Translations under genes and position numbers: made by a program
Shown here: in pieces, positions 15,525 to 23,086 of the stretch
Layout of the letters: each line of letters starts with the position of its first letter
How positions within the stretch are numbered: the stretch's first letter is position 1
NCBI GenBank assembly: GCA_963848135.1
Contig: CAWKCK010000003.1
Location: forward strand, 372,001-436,000
Length of the DNA: 64,000 bases
Reading direction: 5' to 3'
DNA from: an uncultured delta proteobacterium
GTDB lineage: Bacteria; Desulfobacterota; Desulfobacteria; Desulfobacterales; SG8-13
The notes under the pieces: generated by a model
Told to the model about the DNA's origin: nothing
Databases searched by the model: none
The model's input: only the letters and a program-made list of their open reading frames with translations

Positions 15525-15740
15525 TCAGGGTTTTGATCTCTTTAATACATCGAAATGACCGTGCCAGGCACAGTTGATACAGTAAGTCTCTGACTCGTCA
15601 CGAACCGCTGGGATTTCAGAACTGTCAACTTCAGAATCAAATTGGATTTCACCTTCTGTGCACTTGAACTTGAAATAGTTATACTCGTCTTCAGGGTCTT
15701 TGATGTAAAAGTATTCAGATTGGCACAAGGGGCATTTCAT
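15525..15740 (-). CDS. small acidic Cys-rich protein (putative zinc/iron ribbon)
   Basis: CPLC and CINC pairs plus one extra Cys; AAGGA RBS; directly downstream of sppA. Confidence 0.8.
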   Translation of the reverse strand: MKCPLCQSEYFYIKDPEDEYNYFKFKCTEGEIQFDSEVDSSEIPAVRDESETYCINCAWHGHFDVLKRSKP

Positions 15741-15777: not shown

Positions 15778-17634
15778 TTAATTTCCAAAAGCAACGCAAG
15801 ACACGCATAGGGCATAAACGTGCCCGGGGTCGTTAAATGGGAAGAGGCGATCGATACGTTGCTTATCTCGTCCGGAAAGGAAGCTGCGGATTCCGGAAAT
15901 CGCTATTGGCGGGATGCCTTCGGCGGTTATATTGATAACCATCCGTTTAATTCTACGATGGAGTCGCTCTGTGGGGGATACAGGCTTTTCAACATATACC
16001 ACATTATATAAGTCCAACTTGGCCATCTGGGCGGCGCTCCTAACGGCGTCCGCCAAACCGCCCAATTTGTCGATCAGCCCCAGATCAAGGGCCGTCGGTG
16101 CCGCCCATACCCGCCCCTGAGCTATTTTTTCCACGTTATCGAAAGACATATGACGCCCCGTCGCCACCCGGTCGATGAACCGCTGGTACCCTCGCGAGAT
16201 ACCAAGTTCCAAAGCGTTGGAAAGCAGGGGATTGAGTGGGCGTGTAATGTCGAATGCCCCTGAAAGCCGGGTTGTTCCGACCCCATCTGTTGTAATCCCA
16301 ATAGCGTCAAGCGACCGGTTAATGGTGGGCAGGGCGGCAAAGATACCGATGGAACCGGTAATGGTTGTGGGGGATGCCCAAATTTCATCAGCAGCCACAG
16401 AGATCCAGTACGCGCCCGATGCGGCGATTGAGCTCATGGAAACGACCACCGGTTTGCCGATCATTCGCGTCAATTCAAGTTCTCTTCGAATAATCTCCGA
16501 AGCCATTGCGCTGCCGCCACCGCTGTTGATCCTTAACACCACGGTTTTTACCTGCTCGTCTTCTCGCACTTGACGAATGAGTTCGGATATTGATTCACCG
16601 CCGATTCGACCCGCCGGCTGCTTCCCGTCCATTATGATCCCTTCAGCCACAATGACCGCCACGTGACCTTGACCGGGCCGAATTCTTCGCATTTTAGGTA
16701 GTGAAATTTCGGCATATTTTTCAAACGACACGCTTCTGTAATTGATACCGTCTTCTTCTTCACCAACCAGCTCAATCAGCTCTCTTCGAACTTCGTCTCT
16801 GCTTTTCAAGTCGTCCACCAACCCGAAATTTAGTGCCATACGCGCCGCATCGCCATCGACCGCTTTCAGATTGATATCGATGTTGTTTATATAGTCATCG
16901 ATGAGATTTGTCGGTATCGAACGCTGCGTCGCGACCTCCGAAGTATAGGTATCCCAAAGGGTCGTCAACCAGGCGGAATTGGATTCCCTGTCCGCTGTGG
17001 ACATATCATTGCGTAATAAGGGTTCCAAAGCAGATTTGTAAGTTCCTTTCCTGAAAACATGAAAGTCGACCTGAAGTTTGTCGAGCGCATGTTTAATATA
17101 TTGCCGGTAGACGCCGAATCCGCTGAGCCAGACCTGACCCATGGGGTGAAGGTAAAGTTTGTCGGCGTGCGCAGCCAGAAAATATTGCTGCTGGTTAAAC
17201 CCGTTTCCGCTGGCAATAACCGTCTTGCCACTTTCTTTGAAGCGGGTGAGGGCCGCGCCAATTTCCTGCAGCTGGCTGATCCCAACAGATCCCAGATTTT
17301 CTAACTCGAGGACCAGGGCGCTGATATTATTATCCGTTCGGGCATGATCGATGGTGTCGATAAGATCTCGCAGTACGGTTTCGGTACCTGTGGATACATC
17401 CAAGACGCGGTCTATAAGCAAGGGTTCAGCGGATTGTTCAACGATTTTACCGGCCGGAGCGAGTGTCAGTGCGACCTTTTGGGGTACGCTTTTCACTAGA
17501 CTCGAAACCAATAAAACCGCAAGAAAAAATACCAGCAACAAAAAGAAAAGGTTAAAGACGATTTGCCGCAGGGTCGTCACGGCATGCCAAAAAGAACGGA
17601 TCACTTTTCCGATAGTCTTGAGAATTTTTAACAT
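15778..17634 (-). CDS. sppA: signal peptide peptidase SppA, long (67K-type) form
   Basis: N-terminal TM, GTYKSALEP, RINSGGGS, AASGAYW, TGSIG, AQGRVW. Confidence 0.93.
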   Translation of the reverse strand: MLKILKTIGKVIRSFWHAVTTLRQIVFNLFFLLLVFFLAVLLVSSLVKSVPQKVALTLAPAGKIVEQSAEPLLIDRVLDVSTGTETVLRDLIDTIDHARTDNNISALVLELENLGSVGISQLQEIGAALTRFKESGKTVIASGNGFNQQQYFLAAHADKLYLHPMGQVWLSGFGVYRQYIKHALDKLQVDFHVFRKGTYKSALEPLLRNDMSTADRESNSAWLTTLWDTYTSEVATQRSIPTNLIDDYINNIDINLKAVDGDAARMALNFGLVDDLKSRDEVRRELIELVGEEEDGINYRSVSFEKYAEISLPKMRRIRPGQGHVAVIVAEGIIMDGKQPAGRIGGESISELIRQVREDEQVKTVVLRINSGGGSAMASEIIRRELELTRMIGKPVVVSMSSIAASGAYWISVAADEIWASPTTITGSIGIFAALPTINRSLDAIGITTDGVGTTRLSGAFDITRPLNPLLSNALELGISRGYQRFIDRVATGRHMSFDNVEKIAQGRVWAAPTALDLGLIDKLGGLADAVRSAAQMAKLDLYNVVYVEKPVSPTERLHRRIKRMVINITAEGIPPIAISGIRSFLSGRDKQRIDRLFPFNDPGHVYALCVSCVAFGN

Positions 17635-17880: not shown

Positions 17881-17980
17881 ATTATTAATGATTAAAATTA
17901 TATTAAGTAATATACAGTTTATATAAATATATTATATTGACTAATTCTTTTTCGATTATATATTGGTGGTAATAAAAATA
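17881..17980 (+). promoter_or_regulatory. very AT-rich dnaK promoter region
   Basis: TTGACT(17937)-16nt-TATATT; no CIRCE inverted repeat seen. Confidence 0.55.
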
Positions 17981-18059
17981 CGGAAAGGCCACGGAATCAT
18001 TTTTTATAGAAACCATCGGATTCTATCTACGACCTTTCCTTAATAAGGAGGAATATGCA

Positions 18060-19973
18060 ATGAGTAAGGTTATCGGTATAGATCTCGGTACGACCAATTC
18101 CTGCATCGCCGTAATGGAGAACGGGGAAGCCGCCGTAATCACCAACGCTGAAGGTGGTCGGACGACGCCGTCCATGGTCGCCATTACGGACAAGGGCGAG
18201 CGGCTCGTCGGCCAAATAGCCAAGCGGCAGGCCGTCACAAACCCCGAGAATACTGTTTTCGGTGTTAAACGATTGATCGGACGAATGTATGAATCTGCTG
18301 AGGTTAAGGGAGATGCGCGTAATTTACCGTTTCAAATCGAAAAAGCCCCCAACGGAGATGTCCATATCAACTTGCGTGGCAAAACGTATAGTCCGGCTGA
18401 AATTTCGTCATATATCTTATCGAACATCAAAAAATCAGCCGAAGAATATCTGGGTGAGGCTATATCAGATGCCGTCATCACAGTTCCGGCCTACTTCAGC
18501 GATAGCCAGAGGCAGGCCACCAAGGATGCCGGAAAAATCGCCGGACTCAACGTCTTGAGAATCATCAATGAACCAACCGCTGCTTCCCTGGCCTACGGTC
18601 TTGACAAAAATAAAGACGAAAAAATCGCCGTTTTCGATCTTGGTGGCGGCACGTTCGATATTTCCATTCTAGATATCGGTGATGGCGTGTTTGAAGTCAA
18701 AGCCACAAATGGTGACACCCATTTGGGCGGTGAAGATTTCGATCTCAAACTGATCGATTTTATTGCAGATGAATTTAAAAAGGAACAGGGGATTGACCTG
18801 CGGGGGGATAAAATGGCCTTGCAACGCCTTAAGGAGGCCGCCGAAAAAGCGAAGATGGAACTGTCAGGTTCAGTGGAAACCGACATCAATCTGCCATTTA
18901 TCACGGCGGATGCCGTTGGCCCCAAACATCTGAACATGAAAATCTCCCGCTCAAAACTCGAAGCGCTGGTTTCACCATTGCTCGATATGCTCGAAGGTCC
19001 CTGCCTTACAGCTCTCAAAGATGCCGGGATAAAACCGGCTGAGATTGATGAAGTCATCCTCGTGGGCGGAATGACCCGGATGCCGGCGGTTCAGACCCGT
19101 GTTGAAAAAATTTTCGGTAAATCGCCCAACAAAAGCGTCAATCCGGATGAGGTTGTCGCTCTTGGCGCAGCGGTTCAGGGTGCCGTATTGACCGGCGATG
19201 TTAAGGATGTTCTGCTTCTGGATGTGACCCCATTATCGCTGGGCATTGAAACTCTCGGTGGTGTCATGACCAGATTGATCGAAAAAAATACTACAATTCC
19301 ATCCCGGAAAAGCGAAATATTTTCAACTGCGGAGGACAATCAACCGGCGGTCTCCATCCATGTTCTTCAAGGAGAACGGGAAATGGCTATCAACAATAAA
19401 ACTCTGGGGCGATTCGAGTTGGTGGGTATTTCCCCTGCGCCCAGGGGAGCACCACAAATCGAGGTGACCTTCGATATCGATGCCAATGGCATTGTGGAGG
19501 TGTCCGCCACAGATAAGGCGACGGGCAAGGCGCAATCGATTCAAATTTCCCATTCCTCTGGTCTCTCAAAAGAAGAGATCAATCAGTTGGTAAAGGACGC
19601 TCAGTTACACGCGAAAGAAGACCGCCTGAAGCGCGAGCAGGTGGATGCCCACAATGCGGCGGAAGCACTAATTTACAGTACAGAAAAGTCTTTGAATGAT
19701 CTGGGAGACCGCCTGGAAACAAGCGCAAGGTCTGCCACAGAAACAGCCATCACCAACTTGAAAGACGCCTTGGAAAGAGGCAGAACAGCCGATGAGATCA
19801 AGCGCCTGACAGAAGCGCTACGGGATTCTTCACACCGACTGGCTGAAGGGGCCTATCGACAAACGCCAAATCCCGGAGCCGGACCCAGCGGGCCGGGCCC
19901 TCAAGAGTCCCAAAAGCATTCTTCACATAGTAAGGAAGACGTCGTCGATGCCGAGTATGAGGAGGTCGGTTAA
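18060..19973 (+). CDS. dnaK: Hsp70 chaperone DnaK
   Basis: [38 protein letters not shown]-terminal DAEYEEV; AAGGAGG RBS. Confidence 0.97.
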
Positions 19974-19998
19974 CCACAGTCCCCTTACACACAATCGC

Positions 19999-20044
19999 AC
20001 AGGCGGGCGACGATGGTCATTCGTTGCCTGCCTGTATGTTTTTT
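19999..20044 (+). terminator. intrinsic terminator after dnaK
   Basis: ACAGGCGGGCGACGA-loop-TCGTTGCCTGCCTGT followed by a T run. Confidence 0.8.
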
Positions 20045-20150
20045 AGACAGGCAGACGTGCGTACTTAGAATGTCTATCGGATCTTCCAACACGAATTTGG
20101 GTTCATTTACAGGGTTATTGTTCAGCACAATCTCTACGAATACTATCAGA

Positions 20151-20201
20151 TAATAAAAATATATATTGCATTACTTTAAATTTTGATTAAATTTAAGTAA
20201 T
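20151..20201 (+). promoter_or_regulatory. promoter with overlapping inverted repeat upstream of tandem-RHH gene
   Basis: TTGCAT-16nt-TAAATT overlapped by ATTACTT-N18-AAGTAAT. Confidence 0.55.
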
Positions 20202-20239
20202 CTAATGTCGTAGTGATTAACTACTGTAAGAGAGGCCGT

Positions 20240-20833
20240 ATGAATAACGAGGACAACAAGGCCCTCACCGGCAAAGAGTTACCCCAACCGTCATCACGCG
20301 ACCTGCGGGGGCGACAGTCGGTTCGTGCCACATTTAAACTGTCATCCAGGGCCATCGAGACCATGAGTGCCGTTTCGATTCATCTCGGTATCAAGCAGAA
20401 ATCAATTTTCGATCATCTGGTCGAGGACATAAGGGCTCTCGAAATGATCGCTCGCGATGTCCAGGAAGGAAAAATAGATCTACCCAGCCGCGTTCAAAAA
20501 ACCTTCGTTCTTAGCCGCCGAACGCTGGACTGCCTTGAACGGGCGGCCAAGAATTATCAGGCATCCCGAGACGCACTTGTCGAATATTCGATCCAGCGGT
20601 TGCTGCCGGTTATTAAAAAAGAGAAAAAAAAGCACCGAATGCGTAAGGAGCTTCTGGAGCAGATCAATCTGTTCCTTGTCACCGGTGAACAAATTCTTGA
20701 TGCGGGGCAAGAAGCACTGGGGGAGGAAGATCCTGTGTTCAATGAGTTTGCCCGGGCCATGACCAACCTGATGGCTGCCCGTGAAAGTATCGCCGAATTT
20801 ATCAATAGGGGAAGAATTATCGAACGCTTTTAA
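20240..20833 (+). CDS. hypothetical protein with two ribbon-helix-helix-like repeats and a C-terminal helical hairpin
   Basis: Gapless internal repeat VRATFKLSSRAIETM...GIKQKSIF / VQKTFVLSRRTLDCL...QASRDALV; GAGAGG RBS before ATG 20240. Confidence 0.75.
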   Translation: MNNEDNKALTGKELPQPSSRDLRGRQSVRATFKLSSRAIETMSAVSIHLGIKQKSIFDHLVEDIRALEMIARDVQEGKIDLPSRVQKTFVLSRRTLDCLERAAKNYQASRDALVEYSIQRLLPVIKKEKKKHRMRKELLEQINLFLVTGEQILDAGQEALGEEDPVFNEFARAMTNLMAARESIAEFINRGRIIERF

Positions 20834-22258: not shown

Positions 22259-22705
22259 TTACCTTACCAGGTGGCGTATCCCGGGATTTTGAAGGTTTTC
22301 ATGTCCCAAATGCCAATTTCCCCTATCGTCCCTGACACCCTGGAGCCTCCCTTTATTTAAATATTCCTCGACGCCTTTCTCGGTCAGGTAGGTGAGTTTG
22401 CTGAATTCTGCAACGGAATAGGTCTTGCCTGGCGGCTCTGGTTGCTGTTTATTAACCTTTTCCCCGAGCGCTGTCTGGACCAGATGCACCCGGCCGGCCG
22501 ATATTGAGGTCGTCTTTTCACCGGGTGTATTCGCCAGCGCCTTAACAGCTTTGGCTTTGATTTCGTTTTTGTCGATCAACCATTTTCCGGAAACCTTGAC
22601 GCCTTTTATCTTGCCCTCTCGAACCAACCGACCCACGGCTGAGACAGAGATGCCCGTCATTTCTGAAAACTCCCGGGTTGATAAGGATGGGGATTTTTTC
22701 GTCAT
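22259..22705 (-). CDS. protein with two excisionase/MerR-like HTH domains
   Basis: LSTREFSEMTGISVSAVGRLVREGKIKG...W and YSVAEFSKLTYLTEKGVEEYLNKGRLQG...W; alternative start 22729. Confidence 0.8.
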   Translation of the reverse strand: MTKKSPSLSTREFSEMTGISVSAVGRLVREGKIKGVKVSGKWLIDKNEIKAKAVKALANTPGEKTTSISAGRVHLVQTALGEKVNKQQPEPPGKTYSVAEFSKLTYLTEKGVEEYLNKGRLQGVRDDRGNWHLGHENLQNPGIRHLVR

Positions 22706-23086
22706 CACTCGTAATCCTTTCATTCTCATCGATTATTGGAAACAGCATACCACACAGCTCTATTGGAAAGGGTATTGTATGCCTTGGTCCGGTCGGCGTC
22801 AAGAAGCATGCATTCATCGGTCGGCGCCATTAAACAAGAATTGCGATTGCCGTATATTCAACGCGATAGTGCACCAGAAGGTTGCAACGCGTCAGCGAAA
22901 ATTGCTTTTAACGATTGATACCGAATCAAGCTGATGCAAGGGTGTCTCAGCGCTGGTGGTGTCAATTTGTATCAATTCATGCTAAAGGGCAATTTTTAAA
23001 CGGTCAGGATTCGGCCGTAACGTCTGGAAACAACAACTCGAAACATCCTGAGCCTTGCCAGTGTGTCCCACCGGCTAAGATCTTAA

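Follow-up and report, generated by a model that had tools for sequence, protein, structure and literature searches.

A predicted tandem ribbon-helix-helix protein as candidate regulator of a chaperone and protease regulon in Desulfobacterales-type bacteria

What controls a dnaK gene that stands apart from its usual partners and regulators? The question is raised by a 64,000-nucleotide stretch of DNA from an uncultured delta proteobacterium (assembly GCA_963848135.1, contig CAWKCK010000003.1, positions 372,001 to 436,000; hereafter the window, numbered from its first letter). It carries a full-length dnaK, which we call dnaK2, with sppA divergent on one side and orfX, a gene for a protein of 197 residues, on the other. 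Textbook control of bacterial heat shock involves sigma-32, HrcA, HspR, CtsR and RheA. Among the immediate neighbours of dnaK2 (sppA, orfX and a FemAB-like gene) there is no grpE, dnaJ or hrcA, and the window holds no match to the controlling inverted repeat of chaperone expression (CIRCE), even with up to three mismatches allowed. An earlier note on this DNA had therefore spoken of a lone dnaK, and had proposed that orfX encodes a single-chain ribbon-helix-helix (RHH) pseudo-dimer controlling both this dnaK and itself. As a description of the locus, "lone" is correct; genome-wide it is not. Elsewhere in the window's own genome (G000, a 6.03-Mb assembly, 98.65% complete) we found the second locus that the note had suggested looking for: a canonical grpE (C17:1196077-1196562) followed directly by dnaK1 (640 residues), next to which dnaK2 is a second paralogue. 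The two DnaK proteins are 73% identical and both lie above the DnaK equivalog cut-offs (for dnaK2, NF001413 at 991.7 bits with a cut-off of 648, besides the TIGR02350 score in Table 1).

From the predicted fold and dimer, the conserved operator, the genes next to it and its joint occurrence with orfX, all of them computed, we infer that orfX binds an operator and thereby regulates a set of chaperone and protease genes, and we give this reading a probability of about three in four. Most likely, orfX is a transcription factor of a new family, in which a known regulatory role would be filled by a protein and a fold new to it. That it acts as an autoregulated repressor is also probable, with somewhat lower confidence. 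Judged from the sites described below, the regulon would consist of hsp20, dnaK2, clpB, lon and orfX itself, and perhaps sppA.

The first line of evidence comes from the promoters. The same inverted repeat lies ahead of dnaK2 (operator O1) and ahead of orfX, and these two sites in the window compare with 0.04 expected from shuffles. Scored with a weight matrix made from orthologous orfX sites, the orfX and dnaK2 upstream sites are the best and second-best matches in the whole genome, and O1 is one of 5 genome-wide matches to ATTAYT-N18-21-RGTAAT. The repeat is not a peculiarity of this genome: among 81 regions upstream of orfX in other species, 69 have a loose version of it, and in 58 of these the spacer measures 19 or 20 nt. 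The consensus for a spacer of 20 shows TTgc ahead of the left arm and TataaT within the spacer. Ahead of dnaK, 24 of the 31 regions compared (the window and 30 related loci) have the repeat. Among the seven that lack it are loci where orfX stands directly before dnaK, apparently forming an operon with its site ahead of orfX.

The regulon proposed in the earlier note, dnaK and orfX itself, appears to be right as far as it goes, with the repeat at both genes, and too narrow. At 20 bits or more the matrix retrieved 11 sites in G000, five of which precede orfX, dnaK2/sppA, a Lon protease gene (23.8 bits, 81 bp upstream), a tandem hsp20 pair (22.3 bits) and clpB (20.1 bits, 84 bp upstream); one operator thus stands ahead of chaperone and protease genes alike, and also ahead of the gene of the candidate regulator. 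The others lie by a flavodoxin-like gene with a 73-residue open reading frame (ORF) (26.7 bits), dnaN (22.8 bits), a sigma-54 activator gene (22.6 bits) and an HPr-kinase-like gene (21.0 bits), or at two positions with no nearby ORF, C18:525307 (24.3 bits) and C4:232661 (23.5 bits). No site of at least 5 bits was found before grpE-dnaK1, the other three hsp20 copies or the rpoH-like gene of the same genome.

Some of these additional sites deserve a description of their own. The third-best site of the genome (C17:644738-644768, the 26.7-bit one) lies directly downstream of the tandem hsp20 pair and precedes the 73-residue ORF and the flavodoxin-like gene (643905-644348, minus strand). The site at C18:525307-525337 is a perfect ATTACT-N19-AGTAAT, identical letter for letter in a sister genome (G007:C12:61650-61680), within 1.3 kb that contain no ORF of at least 90 residues and no Rfam match; the site may mark a short gene or an RNA of the regulon that lacks annotation, or be there by chance. 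Neither this site nor the orphan at C4:232661, which may likewise be a chance match, has an ORF of note or an Rfam match at the gathering score. In another genome (G003:C4:479172-480128), 336 bp separate a second, diverged copy of orfX (46% identical) from a perfect strict site downstream, and next comes a 156-residue ORF without a Pfam match.

The second line of evidence is the protein. We placed the start of orfX at the ATG at 20240, and not at the GTG at 20213, because M1 is invariant in an alignment of 28 homologues. Comparisons of sequence assign orfX to no named family. A Pfam scan (E<=1) gave DUF2203 alone, at E 0.26 and below cut-off, and no curated RHH family was matched; an NCBIfam scan gave no match; and a sequence profile of the N-terminal domain against PDB sequences reached E 0.58 at best, to an unrelated regulator. 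By the Pfam and NCBIfam scans orfX does not belong to the HrcA, HspR or CtsR families, provided that those libraries include their models. The family to which it does belong is large, with 5716 proteins at E<=0.01 (90% clusters) and 627 clusters at 50% identity and E<=0.001, and the proteins listed are called "hypothetical protein" wherever they are named, bar one Joint Genome Institute label. Beyond orfX's own unnamed family, a search of the ESM Atlas gave just one lead, a weak one (0.88), to DUF1564. Among GTDB species genomes we found 382 stretches matching orfX, with record titles that are almost all of the Desulfobacterales type.

The two gaplessly aligning repeats of the earlier note do align, at an offset of 57 residues, and in the predicted structure they follow the RHH pattern; by sequence alone they are weak. 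Over 40 residues the BLOSUM62 score of 31 is reached by 17 of 500 shuffles, and over 30 residues the score of 26 is reached by 92 of 500. The full-length AlphaFold2 model of orfX (predicted local distance difference test, pLDDT, 81.9) has a first strand-helix-helix unit (strand 27-35, helices 36-49 and 53-60), a helix at 64-76, a second strand-helix-helix unit (strand 84-92, helices 93-105 and 110-119) and two long helices (122-160 and 165-196). Compared with PDB representatives, this model retrieved just generic helical hairpins matching residues 121-197, which we set aside, and the N-terminal domain was therefore folded separately. Modelled alone, the N-terminal 109 residues (pLDDT 83.5, predicted template modelling score 0.76) form a single-chain double RHH. 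In a VIA-align fold search of this model against 48,161 PDB representatives only six chains reached Z>=5: 9f0x_E, a 113-residue chain of the F-plasmid relaxosome (Z 8.6, root-mean-square deviation 3.1, 96 of 109 residues aligned), DndE (7x4e, Z 6.3), a permuted single-chain Arc (1u9p, Z 6.2), 6oaw_B (Z 5.9), AvtR (4hv0, Z 5.2) and a DndE mutant (5wtu, Z 5.1). Below Z 5 came VirC2 and MJ0366, followed by many classical single RHH domains (SvtR, PutA, CopA, TacA, AmrZ, NikR, omega and Arc), which align with repeat 2 at Z 3-4 and deviations of 1.2-2.9. Foldseek was in accord (9f10_E, probability 1.00, E 6e-3).

Going by chain number, size and the three TraY molecules of the paper, chains E, F and G of these relaxosome entries should be TraY. 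F-plasmid TraY is a monomer with the whole RHH-dimer fold in one polypeptide, and three TraY are present per complex, according to the structural paper (PMC12117103). In the predicted model of orfX each repeat has the strand-helix-helix order of the RHH superfamily, the strands pair into an antiparallel ribbon, and both repeats lie in one chain as a pseudo-dimer, as is typical of TraY. The likeness stops at the fold: TraY homology is not indicated, with no Pfam match and an identity of 11-15%, and orfX is chromosomal, beside chaperone genes, with no plasmid or relaxosome context. The tandem RHH fold that the earlier note had proposed is thus predicted in a single chain.

The C-terminal hairpin adds a second level of pairing to this prediction. 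Two copies of residues 118-197 were predicted as a complex with a score of 0.83 in three of three runs, against 0.23 for the best of three controls; the partner pLDDT was 90 and contacts agreed 100% between runs. In a benchmark, 20 of 30 proteins with structures solved as pairs scored this high, compared with 1 of 23 that had been solved as single chains. The predicted self-contacts (145-145 and 177-177) and the cross-chain contact 138-152 indicate an antiparallel four-helix bundle, which would place the two RHH heads at opposite ends. The single-chain pseudo-dimer therefore needs a correction according to the models: the hairpin would make the working unit a dimer of pseudo-dimers.

One can ask whether orfX reads the repeat or is merely one of the genes controlled through it. 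The promoter of orfX would bear a site whether orfX were regulator or target, and another protein could read the repeat while orfX is co-regulated, for instance as a nucleoid- or chaperone-associated protein with an RHH-like fold. We consider this very unlikely from the way in which gene and operator are distributed. We sampled 41 genomes from the genus, family and order, 30 of them orfX-positive and 11 orfX-negative. Sites of at least 16 bits lie upstream of 6 of 20 hsp20 genes in five orfX-positive genomes (from five families), with at least one per genome; for the 18 hsp20 genes of five orfX-negative genomes there is none, the highest score being 8.5 bits. The strict pattern ATTACT-N18-21-AGTAAT is depleted where orfX is missing (3 sites in the 11 genomes vs 12 matches to the control pattern). 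The gene and the operator have been kept together down to 37% identity, and in the related loci we saw no other conserved gene that could encode the regulator. The predicted fold of orfX is also of a DNA-reading type, and two heads on an antiparallel dimer would suit a two-armed inverted operator. The orfX-positive genomes contain 50 strict sites, which by their coordinates and by annotation of 20 further sites fall into four groups: 22 beside orfX, 10 beside hsp20 and/or dnaK, 3 beside clpB and 15 elsewhere. Of those 10, 9 adjoin hsp20 and 3 dnaK, with 2 shared by a divergent pair and one adjoining also an HtrA-like protease. A second dnaK match is also more frequent where orfX is present. 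Two dnaK matches (E<=1e-150) were found in 18 of 30 orfX-positive and 2 of 11 orfX-negative genomes; in the latter two the second match is 59% identical in one and partial in the other, and some second matches in orfX-positive genomes are also partial.

Individual targets differ in how far they are conserved. G000 encodes five Lon-type paralogues, and the operator lies before just one, at C17:876967-879423, for which we saw close orthologues (>=79% identity) in no family but the window's own. In 12 of 17 such orthologues a site scoring 15.8-27.6 bits lies between -62 and -106; across these sites the arms (TTGCATTATT ... GGTAATGCAG) are conserved and the spacer varies. None of 12 other Lon paralogues has a site above 5 bits. 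For clpB, 6 of 30 loci have 20-31-bit sites at -82 to -145, all in the window's family, where the other clpB loci retain the left arm only. Since clpB upstream sites score at most 9.3 bits in other families, we rejected clpB as a general target.

The architecture of the sites bears on what they are. The arms bracket a promoter of the form TTGCAT-16/17-TAnnnT; at orfX this promoter was read by eye, the consensus scan having made no call. The left arm overlaps the -35-like TTGCAT, and these regions are AT-rich with a non-negligible background of matches, so one could take the motif for the promoter signature of an alternative sigma factor, or for AT-rich context, with orfX uninvolved. Several features make such an origin of the motif hardly credible. 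The motif has dyad symmetry (TGCATTACT ... AGTAATGCA), unlike promoters; the right arm comes 23-24 nt after TTGCAT, too distant for a -10; a single site serves divergent gene pairs; and it is the arms that are conserved and the spacer that varies.

The same architecture suggests the direction of control by orfX. At its own promoter the left arm covers the -35 and the right arm comes directly after the -10, so that binding there should block RNA polymerase, and an autoregulated repressor is the most likely mode of action. It could also be that orfX binds the same operator and activates the chaperone genes, or does both, repressing only its own promoter. A role as activator at some promoters is conceivable because the strong dnaK2 site, O1, lies upstream of the predicted -35: it ends about 26 bp before it (17937), a distance that suits an activator as well, and only the weak 6.2-bit site overlaps the dnaK2 promoter. 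Moreover, in many related loci a distance of 110-230 bp separates the upstream site from the dnaK start codon. Where promoters can be read, they point the other way. The arms bracket -35 and -10 not only at orfX but also in the dnaK promoters TTGC-ATTACT-N20-AGTAAT of five related loci (L041, L045, L050, L070 and L074), and the call of the dnaK2 promoter is a consensus match only, with other promoters possible. The known dedicated heat-shock transcription factors of bacteria, HrcA, HspR, CtsR and RheA, are repressors. On balance, activation of the chaperone genes by orfX seems unlikely, and repression remains our preferred mode of action.

The third line of evidence is the company that orfX keeps. 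Within 1.5 kb of orfX in 80 loci of other species, we found dnaK in 32, hsp20 in 21 and sppA in 9, with at least one of them in 55, which provides the link to chaperone genes that the earlier note had asked for. The arrangements vary (dnaK-orfX, orfX-dnaK, divergent, or two orfX copies flanking dnaK), which argues for selection and not merely inherited gene order. Like dnaK2 in the window, dnaK or orfX is divergent from sppA in many related loci, and sppA is a possible regulon member via the intergenic region that it has in common with dnaK2. Where no chaperone gene adjoins orfX, its neighbours are unrelated. In 4 of 15 such loci (L035:6638-8560, L039:6588-8675, L050:7036-8961 and L084:6560-8473), a protein of 637-695 residues with a retropepsin-like aspartyl protease domain at its C-terminus is encoded convergently, directly after orfX; in two of these proteins an N-terminal zinc ribbon is present as well.

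The association extends beyond the order. Of 251 genomes sampled evenly over the phylum, 7 have an orfX homologue: G000, two more in the same order and four outside it. We examined five copies from these four outside genomes. Four of the five (37-51% identical) are transcribed divergently from hsp20 genes (between one and three of them), and the intervening DNA holds an operator of 27-31 bits; one of the four also heads an operon with dnaK. The fifth copy (24% identical) has no chaperone neighbour and a 15-bit site only.

Apart from what speaks for an activator or for a promoter signature, several observations weigh against orfX as the operator-binding regulator of this regulon. The fold matches depend on predicted models, and it is the predicted structure, not sequence statistics, that establishes the internal repeat. 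The operator has a background: the 11 sites of at least 20 bits in G000 compare with 4 in a reversed-genome control, so that roughly a third of them are possibly due to chance, and the 50 strict sites in orfX-positive genomes compare with 33 matches to the reversed pattern. Among the 15 strict sites found elsewhere, 5 lie within coding sequence, 5 were not fetched and 5 stand beside unrelated or unnamed ORFs. Membership of clpB and lon in the regulon is limited to the window's own family. Neither dnaK, hsp20 nor sppA is beside orfX in 25 of the 80 loci, although 8 of these 25 have less than 500 bp of flank on one side. The genome encodes a sigma-32-like factor (NF005143, 264 bits, cut-off 241), which may drive part of the same response. 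Finally, the half-site centres are 25-26 bp apart, or about 2.4 turns, so that on straight DNA the heads would sit almost on opposite sides of the helix.

The features of the locus are collected in Table 1. The terminator between dnaK2 and orfX makes orfX a separate transcription unit here. Two small genes lie further out. The gene 3' of the FemAB-like gene encodes a 156-residue protein with two helix-turn-helix regions (HTH_17 at residues 16-58 and a MerR-like one at 104-147), and it stays at this place in the closest loci (L009-L014, L016, L021 and L022). Directly downstream of sppA, a 71-residue cysteine-rich, zinc-ribbon-like protein is encoded by a gene that is kept there in L009-L011 and L016-L018 (58-88% identity).

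Table 1. Genes, predicted domains and regulatory sites around dnaK2 and orfX, in window coordinates.
Feature	Position	Strand	Details
Gene for 71-residue zinc-ribbon-like protein	15525-15740	-	
sppA (67K signal peptide peptidase)	15778-17634	-	PF01343 222.8 bits; TIGR00705 517.7 bits, cut-off 311.45
Operator O1, ATTATT-N19-AGTAAT	17881-17911		sppA-dnaK2 intergenic, 148 bp before dnaK2 start; 27.0 bits
Sigma-70-like dnaK2 promoter, TTGACT-16-TATATT (tentative)	17937-17964	+	consensus scan, 10/12 matches
Weak second operator-like site (tentative)	17944-17973		weight-matrix scan, 6.2 bits; overlaps dnaK2 promoter
dnaK2, full-length, 637 residues	18060-19973	+	PF00012 863 bits; TIGR02350 957.9 bits, cut-off 822.55
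Strong intrinsic terminator 3' of dnaK2	19999-20045	+	stem 19999-20035 plus T run; 15-pair stem, 9 G-C pairs
orfX operator, TTGC-ATTACT-N20-AGTAAT	20166-20205		core 20170-20201; about 40 bp before orfX start; 32.5 bits
orfX promoter (read by eye)	20166-20193		TTGCAT 20166-20171, 16-nt spacer, TAAATT 20188-20193
orfX, 197 residues	20240-20833	+	disordered 1-24; RHH repeat 1 27-76; RHH repeat 2 84-119; hairpin 122-196
Predicted tandem RHH DNA-binding module, residues 27-119	20318-20596	+	VIA-align and Foldseek matches
Helical hairpin, predicted antiparallel homodimer, residues 122-196	20603-20827	+	
FemAB-like gene, 3' of orfX	21062-22246		
Gene for 156-residue protein with two helix-turn-helix regions	22259-22729	-	

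Taken together, these data suggest how orfX could work. Its two RHH repeats would pair within the chain into one pseudo-dimeric, DNA-reading ribbon, and each ribbon would read one asymmetric half-site, (TTGC)ATTACT. Reading of an asymmetric arm fits the two different ribbon strands, RATFKL and QKTFVL, both nearly invariant. The C-terminal hairpin would couple two chains into an antiparallel dimer that spans the 25-26 bp between arm centres, with the heads jointly occupying ATTACT-N19-20-AGTAAT. At the orfX promoter, where the arms lie over and next to the promoter elements, the bound dimer would exclude RNA polymerase. The other targets would be dnaK2 (through the site common with the divergent sppA), the tandem hsp20 pair, clpB and one lon paralogue, and the housekeeping grpE-dnaK1, which has no operator, would stay outside this control. 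Heat or unfolded protein would presumably lift repression through an unstable protein or an unstable coiled-coil dimer; alternatively, the signal could arrive through titration of a DnaK2 that keeps orfX active. One can go further and picture orfX as a protein thermometer, whose antiparallel coiled-coil hairpin determines how far apart the heads are and loosens with temperature, or as a DnaK2-dependent repressor that reads free DnaK2 capacity at the hsp20, dnaK2, clpB and lon promoters. It would then be a fifth class of bacterial heat-shock repressor, without structural relation to HrcA, HspR, CtsR and RheA, which arose in HrcA-lacking bacteria of the Desulfobacterales type together with a duplicated partner DnaK. 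We offer this last picture tentatively, as possible but doubtful.

If orfX is the regulator that we propose, a large and environmentally dominant group of sulfate reducers appears to use a heat-shock regulator unrelated to the known ones. This would give a function to a widespread "hypothetical protein" and explain why a second dnaK is retained in these genomes, and the operator could help to annotate stress regulons in genomes assembled from metagenomes. The predicted fold, a single-chain double RHH, is rare and would come with a clear operator and a readable regulon. With 197 residues of protein and roughly 40 bp of operator, it would also be a compact system in which an RHH module is wired to stress sensing.

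How does such a system compare with those already known? In open-access papers and preprints we found neither an RHH-type heat-shock regulator nor a description of the orfX family, in a search that could miss a report in a subscription journal. For heat shock in delta-proteobacteria, a comparative study of regulons described sigma-32 and HrcA/CIRCE only; it reports negative regulation of chaperone operons by HrcA/CIRCE in most of the species studied, with groESL as the constant HrcA target, and HrcA missing in Desulfotalea (PMC545781). In our sample of the order, HrcA (PF01628) was found in 0 of 41 genomes, with or without orfX, 22 of which have a completeness of 90% or more and a contamination of 5% or less; run on 14 control genomes, the search detected HrcA in 7. 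Were orfX a substitute for HrcA in individual genomes, the two genes should alternate; as HrcA is missing from all 41 regardless of orfX, we rejected this idea. The two systems are alike in having a conserved inverted repeat ahead of chaperone genes, and differ in that there is no HrcA in these genomes and no CIRCE in the window.

HspR, known from Streptomyces, Mycobacterium and Helicobacter, is a repressor encoded beside dnaK that controls dnaK, clpB, lon-type genes and itself, with DnaK as feedback partner. It is a MerR-family helix-turn-helix protein and binds over the promoter at an inverted repeat, HAIR (HspR-associated inverted repeat, CTTGAGT-N7-ACTCAAG). The resemblance to orfX, which adjoins dnaK, has a site at its own promoter and has clpB and lon as predicted targets, is considerable in gene content. 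The protein and its operator are different: orfX is a predicted tandem RHH, and ATTACT-N19-20-AGTAAT has a much longer spacer. RheA, the autoregulated hsp18 repressor of Streptomyces albus, is itself a thermometer and is encoded divergently from the small heat-shock gene, and TlpA of Salmonella is an autoregulated repressor that senses temperature by the unfolding of a coiled coil. Like them, orfX is often divergent from hsp20 and has, in the models, a coiled-coil-like dimerisation hairpin; in the family scans it shows no sequence relation to either.

Other parallels lie in the fold. TraY, the engineered single-chain Arc, AvtR and VirC2 resemble orfX in that two RHH repeats in one polypeptide provide a whole RHH-dimer fold. 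TraY, however, is a relaxosome accessory protein of conjugative plasmids and not a stress regulator, shares only the 11-15% identity given above, and apparently has no C-terminal hairpin like that of orfX, since the matched chain is only 113 residues long. With the classical RHH proteins -Arc, MetJ, CopG, NikR, omega and antitoxins- orfX would have in common the two-stranded antiparallel ribbon that enters the major groove. In the classical repressors this ribbon is made from two chains, whereas in orfX it is predicted to form within one chain, which then dimerises via a separate domain.

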